DNA of 9,032 nucleotides from a virus. Taxonomy: Duplodnaviria > Heunggongvirae > Uroviricota > Caudoviricetes. The notes under the pieces are model-generated. The model was given only the letters and a program-made list of their open reading frames with translations. It was not told the origin of the DNA and did not search any database. Made by a program: the position numbers and the translations under genes. The DNA lies in IMG/VR virus record IMGVR_UViG_2693429599_000008; one strand, written 5' to 3'. This document shows positions 4,798-5,847 of this stretch, one piece after another (within the stretch, counting starts at the first letter, position 1; each line of letters begins with the position of its first letter).

Positions 4798-4841
4798 AGC
4801 CAGCGTCTTCTTTCAGGTCAGTCGCTGGCTCTTTTTTTATT
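4798..4841 (+). terminator. Hairpin plus U-run (unit 2), overlapping the 3' end of the 335-aa gene
   Basis: 8-bp stem agccagcg (4798-4805) / cgctggct (4823-4830), 17-nt loop, then ctttttttatt 4831-4841. Confidence 0.45.
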
Positions 4842-5847
4842 ATGCTGCCGGTGCATTTATCTCCAGCACCAGACTTTCTATCTCAACGCCATACGCTGCA
4901 TTTTTTGTAACATCCGTCAGCGTCAGCGCATTCAGTCCCAGTGTCAGACCGTCTTTTATAACCTGGAATGCCGGGCCAGCCACTCCATTCAGTTTCGGAG
5001 TAACCGTGGCACTGCCGGCGGTGAACACCAGCTCCAGCGTCTGCCAGTCGTTACCGTAATCGCCGAACTCCCCCAGCTTCGTGTTTCCGGCTTTCCTGTG
5101 ATGCATCAGATTCACTCTGCCGTCAGTGGTCTGAGTGAAGTACGACATCAGGAACGGATTACCGGTACCCGTCATCGCCACACCATCAGGAACGGGAGCA
5201 TCCGTATACAGATAAATCCCCAGCCCGAACTGATTGTTGGTCAGTGCGCCTGACAGGCGGAACTTACAGGTCAGTCTGCCGCCCTGTGTCAGCAGGGTAA
5301 TTGCGTCATCCACCGGATGCGTCAGGGACCAGGTTTTATTGCTCTGCTTGGTGATCTTAAATACACCATCTGACAACTGAATTCCGCCATCCTTAATGCT
5401 CCAGCCCTGCGCAGCAGCCTCTCCGGCTGCCGGCAGCAGGGAGATTGTGCGAACGGACGTATCTGCAGACGGACCCGATGGCGTGTTGCCGCCGGGCGAG
5501 GGTTTGATTTCCGGTGCCTTACCACTGATGAAGGCTGAGGTGCGCCCGGCTGCGTTCAGAATAGCGGTTGCCAGACGATCCGGAATAATGCTCCTGCGCG
5601 CCCATGAACTGAAATGTGTCGGGCGGTTTGATGATACCTGGTTTCCATTCGTTCTCGATGCCGCACCGTAATATCCTGATGCCGGAATATCCGGATCTTC
5701 TGCCGGCGCGTTAGTGGCGGTATTGACGCCGTTACCGTCTGTCATGAAGGGCACAAAATAAACGCCCTCACTCTCCCTGTTTTTATACCCTCCGTACACG
5801 GTGTCGTACTGGGTATCAGAATTGTGAAATTTGGTTTTGTGCGCCAT
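4840..5847 (-). CDS. 335-aa phage protein of uncertain function; possibly NanS-p-related (N-terminal region plus C-terminal lectin-like beta domain) without a recognisable esterase core
   Basis: Long ORF with phage-like GC content and a weak SD (agagaaaacagATG). Sits immediately upstream of the holin region, where Stx-type phages carry nanS-p as I recall. G/T/N/S-rich, beta-like C-terminal half; no GDS(x) SGNH motif seen. Family assignment is from memory and not verified. Confidence 0.6.
   Translation of the reverse strand: MAHKTKFHNSDTQYDTVYGGYKNRESEGVYFVPFMTDGNGVNTATNAPAEDPDIPASGYYGAASRTNGNQVSSNRPTHFSSWARRSIIPDRLATAILNAAGRTSAFISGKAPEIKPSPGGNTPSGPSADTSVRTISLLPAAGEAAAQGWSIKDGGIQLSDGVFKITKQSNKTWSLTHPVDDAITLLTQGGRLTCKFRLSGALTNNQFGLGIYLYTDAPVPDGVAMTGTGNPFLMSYFTQTTDGRVNLMHHRKAGNTKLGEFGDYGNDWQTLELVFTAGSATVTPKLNGVAGPAFQVIKDGLTLGLNALTLTDVTKNAAYGVEIESLVLEINAPAA

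Follow-up and report, generated by a model that had tools for sequence, protein, structure and literature searches.

The 335-aa open reading frame (ORF) studied here is very probably a remnant of a nanS-p gene (sialate O-acetylesterase), generated by a deletion in a decaying Escherichia coli prophage, and as such a product of ordinary prophage decay. It is a truncated allele of a characterised gene family and belongs to a kind already known, not to a new kind of protein. Illegitimate recombination with 1 nt of microhomology removed 4,547 bp from a lambdoid prophage that carries nleB2, and the two ends met in frame by chance, giving a chimeric ORF of 335 codons. If made, the product would start with a foreign leader of 11 aa, followed by 87 orphan residues of an SGNH esterase, a flexible linker and an intact lectin-like jelly-roll. 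The ORF is probably still open only because the deletion was both recent and in frame, and we regard it as most likely a non-functional pseudogene. The parts of the ORF are listed below, with positions in the window, by which we mean the whole stretch of 9,032 nt that was analysed.

4840..5847, (-): chimeric 335-aa ORF, ATG-initiated (ORF listing), made of 11 codons of a hokD-adjacent gene and codons 293-616 of a NanS-p-type esterase; stop codon at 4840-4842
5815..5847, (-): start codon and first 11 codons, which in intact prophages are the 5' end of a 92-aa gene (L001 10718..10996); junction at 5815
5554..5814, (-): orphan C-terminal fragment of the NanS-like SGNH domain, aa 12-98, equal to full-length residues 293-379 (3PT5 alignment)
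5614..5625, (-): SGNH block IV, RPTH, aa 75-78, the sole catalytic motif kept, with a His that has no partner Ser
5431..5553, (-): Pro/Gly/Ser-rich interdomain linker, aa 99-139, predicted to be disordered
4852..5430, (-): intact C-terminal lectin-like jelly-roll, aa 140-332 (Pfam, 6YP6, AlphaFold2, Foldseek)

In E. coli RM14723 the corresponding prophage is nearly intact, and the window was compared with it (its locus is L001 here). Window 2427-5815 and L001 3028-6416 differ by 2 mismatches in 3,389 bp (99.94% identity), and window 5815-6184 continues at L001 10964-11332 with 96.2% identity; the 4,547 bp between these segments (L001 6417-10963) are absent from the window. A megablast comparison with complete E. 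coli genomes places the break at the same position: window 4400-5815 has 99.8-99.9% identity to the 3' part of genes annotated as 'SASA family carbohydrate esterase', and the identity stops abruptly at 5815. On the protein level, aa 12-335 of the ORF reproduce aa 293-616 of the 616-aa esterase (WP_001358067.1) without a change, and aa 1-11 (MAHKTKFHNSD) resemble the start of the 92-aa gene of RM14723 (MAHDTKLHNSD). The following was lost with the 4,547 bp.

Codons 1-292 of the 616-aa esterase gene (L001 5441..7291)
A DUF3927 gene, a terB pseudogene, the gene of a Q-type antitermination protein, rusA and a DUF968 gene
The 92-aa hypothetical gene just downstream of hokD, except for its first 11 codons

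The two ends share a single nucleotide (A) at the junction, which indicates illegitimate and not homologous recombination, and the reading frame is kept across it, for which the chance is 1 in 3. Apart from one synonymous difference the ORF is the same as the corresponding part of the intact RM14723 gene. This single site shows that the deletion is recent, and it also means that the conservation of the ORF says nothing on selection. The ORF has no frameshift or stop, and its near-identity to the intact copies leaves no time for either outcome. Likewise, dN/dS or decay among the carriers is uninformative, given that the copies are protein-identical and differ from intact alleles at one synonymous site. 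The borrowed ATG is itself an unproven start and may reflect over-extended annotation, since PHROG_1212 covers the 92-aa gene (L001 10718-10996, -) only from aa 27.

Another nanS-p allele, P0006 (453 aa, GCA_009900505.1; L013 3001-4362), has an internal deletion in the esterase domain with its 3' end at the same codon, T293, and the coding strand reads GAT|ACN CAR TAY both at that junction and at window 5812-5815. Comparison of the two junctions revealed no obvious DNA motif common to them, so a recombination hot spot at T293 was rejected and the shared codon is taken as coincidence.

The family of the ORF is clear from profile searches. The 634-position profile PHROG_143 matches with E = 6e-145 and aligns ORF aa 9-334 to profile positions 299-631, and hence the ORF is the back half of a protein of ~630 aa. 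Pfam places DUF6645 (PF20350) at aa 186-296 (E = 2.1e-18) and no other Pfam domain in the ORF, and the NCBIfam search of the ORF gave no match. In the intact protein of RM14723, Pfam finds DUF1737 at aa 3-50, a SASA domain that starts at aa 66, and DUF6645 at aa 467-577. NanS/YjhS (PDB 3PT5) aligns to aa 59-379 of this protein with E = 3e-121, and 6YP6, the 'NanS-p' C-terminal domain, to aa 421-613 with E = 1.3e-29. Given that the NanS-homologous domain spans aa 59-379, the break at 292/293 falls inside the catalytic domain and not between domains. No DUF1737 is found by Pfam in the 335-aa ORF, and the corresponding sequence lies in the deleted segment.

A reading made earlier from the sequence alone had reported no GDS-type SGNH motif, and a regular-expression search for GDS, GQS and GQSN in the ORF bears this out. 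The GQSN serine sits at full-length aa 71-74, N-terminal of the break, and was lost together with SGNH blocks I-III. The retained RPTH is a block IV variant among the NanS-p SGNH motifs and occurs in the allele of Stx2a prophage 86 (PMC10462455). That the esterase core is lacking, as the same reading proposed, is thus correct for the nucleophile and blocks I-III and too broad for residues 12-98, which are still esterase sequence and hold block IV. An SGNH esterase requires both a serine nucleophile and an oxyanion hole. With the blocks for both missing, we infer from SGNH chemistry that the product is esterase-dead; its Neu5,9Ac2 O-acetylesterase activity is predicted to be absent, and the ORF is almost certainly a deletion remnant without esterase function.

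The sequence-only reading had offered two identities for the protein. One was an unrelated protein that merely fills the nanS-p slot, and nothing beyond the empty NCBIfam search was left on its side after testing. It is refuted by the DNA, which is 99.9% identical to the 3' part of genes annotated as SASA esterases, by the PHROG_143 match, by the alignment to the 645-aa 933W-type NanS-p, where 38% identity extends over 97% of the ORF length, and by the fold match to 6YP6 described below, and its probability is practically nil. The other was a domain-deleted NanS-p relative that keeps only carbohydrate binding. This holds insofar as the core is lost and the C-terminal domain is kept, with strong similarity to the NanS-p C-terminus by PHROG_143, Pfam and 6YP6, but the event was not a clean domain deletion, given that the cut lies inside the esterase domain and leaves 87 residues of it.

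The structure predicted by AlphaFold2 from a 19-sequence alignment divides the protein in two. Residues 1-128 have pLDDT <50, and the 87-residue esterase fragment is therefore predicted to be unfolded, while aa ~130-335 form an all-beta domain with pLDDT 85-92. [quoted passage not shown] The second is the sialic-acid-binding CBM40 of V. cholerae sialidase (2W68, E = 1e-8), and further matches are to L-type lectins (ERGIC-53, VIP36 and legume lectins). The early guess of a C-terminal beta-sandwich or lectin-like domain was accordingly a good one. As summarised in PMC10462455, which cites Franke et al. 2020, the sugar site proposed for vb_24B_21 involves the aromatics Y510, Y515, Y540 and F611. 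Their equivalents in the ORF are F207, Y212, F237 and L303, so that three of the four positions of this proposed site are aromatic. Carbohydrate binding by the NanS-p C-terminal domain, even when intact, has been proposed without experimental evidence (PMC8065619).

The surroundings of the ORF are those of a lambdoid lysis cassette on one side and of the early region on the other.

2965..3498, same strand as the ORF: phage lysozyme, downstream of the ORF (profile search)
4186..4392, (-): class II (P21-type) holin S, on the downstream side of the ORF; the 4,547-bp deletion took away its Q-dependent late promoter region
5929..5946, (-): intrinsic terminator-like hairpin with T-run, after hok; the fused ATG follows 82 nt further downstream
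6015..6340, (-): complete hok/mok/sok type I toxin-antitoxin locus directly upstream of the ORF (Pfam HOK_GEF, E = 1.6e-22)

The ORF lies 447 bp upstream of the P21-type holin gene, and the lysozyme gene and an Rz fragment also lie downstream on the same strand. Of the lambdoid late-operon setting, the holin and lysozyme genes are retained downstream, and Q and the region from Q to nanS-p are deleted. The slot of the ORF holds a 645-aa ORF in Stx2-converting phage I, with the order stx2A, stx2B, 645-aa ORF, S, R, and a 616-aa SASA esterase in E. coli RM14723. Both positional statements of the sequence-only reading, a 335-aa gene at the nanS-p position upstream of the holin gene and a NanS-p of ~645 aa at this slot in Stx-type phages, stand. 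Between the holin and lysozyme genes, window 3616-3930 (+) holds a conserved ORF on the opposite strand, which is the hypothetical protein WP_000138558.1 in RM14723 and JB2 and a 90-aa gene call in L004-L006.

Lambdoid late transcription runs from a Q-dependent late promoter. With Q and the region downstream of Q gone, Q-dependent late transcription of the ORF and of S-R is no longer possible. Rfam detects sok at 6165-6340 with 120.5 bits, and a promoter scan found no sigma-70 consensus between the hok terminator and the ATG, which is weak negative evidence. The Shine-Dalgarno sequence is weak (…GCAGAGAAAACAG ATG). Judged from these signals, expression of the ORF is doubtful; a transcript could arise by read-through from upstream early genes or from hok.

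The deletion at 5815 is one of three by which the window differs from RM14723, of ~1.58 kb, 20,985 bp and 4,547 bp. In RM14723 the prophage has the order nleF, nleH', nleC', nleB2, tail fibres, lom, J, tail/head genes, terminase, Rz, R and S, followed by nanS-p, Q, rusA, hokD, racR, dicB and int. The 20,985-bp deletion extends from inside J to inside Rz, with its junction at 2427-2430, and all head, tail and terminase/packaging genes are gone. At this junction the first ~87 Rz codons (ORF 2387..2686) abut the receptor-binding C-terminus of J (Ig_GpJ_C), and the Rz ORF matches positions 2-42 only of the Phage_lysis profile. A chimeric 212-aa ORF at 1912..2550 crosses the J/Rz junction. The ~1.58-kb deletion lies in the tail-fibre/lom region, with its junction at 1694-1702 and flanks that overlap by 9 nt, and takes most of the gene for the tail-fibre N-terminal domain and part of lom. 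The loss of Q and the late promoter together with the two other large deletions makes a remnant or pseudogene the most economical reading, more so than an evolved lectin-only variant, and the ORF is probably functionally irrelevant.

The cargo of the prophage has fared better than its phage genes. An intact nleB2 is found at 1..981 (-), encoding a 326-aa effector of the T3SS arginine glycosyltransferase type (SseK_NleB, E = 3e-181), and nleF lies further along sister contig L004. Cargo genes that are kept while phage genes decay are the familiar pattern of a grounded prophage.

In the early region, a 228-aa homologue of QueH-type epoxyqueuosine reductase is encoded at 6408-7094 (-) (PF02677, E = 1e-65; PHROG_3217). 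It is flanked by hok/sok and a DUF977 gene, and in RM14723 its place is taken by DUF551 genes; such a metabolic/tRNA-modification gene is unusual in a lambdoid prophage. Further along, a DUF1627 gene (7689..8288, -) starts ~50 bp from the divergent dicB (8339..8527, +). Between these two genes the window has no repressor or immunity genes; RM14723 has racR and ydaS/ydaT-like genes there.

The allele came to light only when draft and metagenome assemblies were searched for exact copies of the protein. All 335 aa are present unchanged on 8 contigs, which come from three assemblies at NCBI, one metagenome assembly of ENA and three Logan assemblies of separate runs, and the neighbours are the same in all 8 wherever the contig is long enough. 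Each contig has 0-3 mismatches to the window, and one has a single-base gap as well; with E. coli contig CYFI01000005.1 (GCA_001283785.1; L004) the window shares 100% identity. Among 5,426 complete E. coli genomes, queries of 2 kb and 231 bp found the exact junction in none. Deposited records call the ORF 'YjhS [Escherichia coli]' (CTR71063.1 and others), intact genes of the family go under 'SASA family carbohydrate esterase' or under 'DUF6645 domain-containing protein', and some family alleles are named '9-O-acetyl-N-acetylneuraminic acid deacetylase'.

Two further readings have to be weighed against a deletion remnant. The gene might be an assembly artefact, created when repeated prophage sequences were wrongly joined in a draft assembly, with no such gene in the cell. 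Near-identical lambdoid prophages, which occupy up to 19 places per genome in the E. coli megablast, often confuse short-read assemblies, and the absence of the junction from the complete genomes fits this too; however, the same ORF and flanks come from independent sources, and one of the 8 contigs is 219 kb long. Misassembly was rejected on the ground that the allele was recovered independently in 7 samples, and we consider it highly improbable. The gene might otherwise be an exapted, stand-alone lectin that binds sialoglycans or mucin and is kept for the benefit of the host, with the N-terminal junk perhaps shed by the autoproteolysis in the linker that is reported for NanS-p. An intact jelly-roll whose closest folds are 6YP6 and then the V. 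cholerae CBM40, aromatic residues at F207, Y212 and F237, a preserved frame, the occurrence of the allele in several samples and the reported cleavage of phi24B gp84 between its catalytic and C-terminal domains are all in line with such a role. Against this, the ORF has no signal peptide, and a holin and a lysozyme without Q-dependent control and with a truncated Rz offer no evident exit route. The terminator just upstream is followed by no promoter, the allele is rare and missing from the complete genomes, its sequence is essentially that of the intact copies and bears no sign of selection, the fourth site residue is Leu and not Phe, and sugar binding is a proposal even for the parent domain (PMC8065619). 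An exapted lectin is therefore unlikely, and its full form, a free-standing sialoglycan or mucin lectin that is expressed from the early region and kept by an aEPEC-like host lineage for its own benefit, is more unlikely still and can be given very little weight; if true, it would be a domain exaptation from a decaying prophage caught in the act.

Several points count against a non-functional remnant of nanS-p. The frame is kept and the lectin-like domain is fully intact, so that a stable product is possible, read-through as described above could express the ORF, it has gathered no frameshift or stop, and the allele has been inherited in several isolates or samples, as the 8 contigs show, and was not immediately purged. 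Consistent with a remnant, other decay forms of nanS-p are common (P0006, P0044, P0008, P0010, P0021 and a pseudogene of strain 2013C-4974). That pseudogene, C6998_RS10420 in the PGAP annotation, has an internal stop and a missing N-terminus and is named 'DUF6645 domain-containing protein'; in P0044 DUF1737 is joined directly to DUF6645, and P0008, P0010 and P0021 are nanS-p derivatives shortened at the 5' end. Like the ORF, the decayed E. coli alleles are shortened or internally deleted, keep DUF6645 and lie in prophage remnants. Each has its own breakpoints, and the ORF is set apart only by its in-frame, hokD-adjacent start. Another NanS-p relative, P0001 (428 aa, ENA), has a tandem duplication where its C-terminal domain begins, so that ~55 residues (SLLPTAG…DDAVSLL) occur twice, which makes it a further structural variant of DUF6645.

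Compared with functional NanS-p (933W L0105/z1466; phi24B vb_24B_21/gp84; PHROG_143), the ORF has kept the linker, the DUF6645 jelly-roll at the C-terminus (6YP6) and the genomic slot before holin S, but it is without DUF1737, which binds the capsid, and without ~70% of the esterase domain, the GQSN serine included. It begins with foreign residues, has lost the context of Q and the late promoter upstream, and is a fragment and not a functional member. The phi24B NanS-p homologue gp84 is a capsid-decoration protein whose DUF1737 forms a hexamer on capsid hexons and which is proteolytically processed between the catalytic and C-terminal domains after phage release (2026 preprint, 10.64898/2026.04.10.717836). 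With DUF1737 gone and no capsid genes left, the product of the ORF is expected to be unable to attach to capsids. Chromosomal NanS/YjhS, the SGNH 9-O-acetyl-Neu5Ac esterase of 3PT5, is a complete single-domain enzyme, whereas aa 12-98 of the ORF correspond to about its last 87 residues, with the block IV His but without the nucleophile and oxyanion-hole blocks, and are predicted to be unfolded. The fold of aa ~130-335 also matches jelly-roll modules such as CBM40 (2W68) and ERGIC-53/VIP36, with E = 1e-8 to 1e-7 and target TM-scores of 0.5-0.65; at 9-18% sequence identity this is a likeness of the predicted fold.

For annotation, the finding means that the ORF should not be scored as a functional nanS-p esterase when the use of Neu5,9Ac2 or mucin by strains is assessed. 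The locus is a base-resolved example of a cargo-bearing lambdoid prophage (nleB2, nleF) locked in place by large deletions, to which Q, the genes for morphogenesis and some of the lysis cassette were lost and which spared the effector genes. Should the ORF be translated, its product would amount to a naturally occurring 'lectin-only' construct built on the C-terminal, putatively sugar-binding domain of NanS-p.
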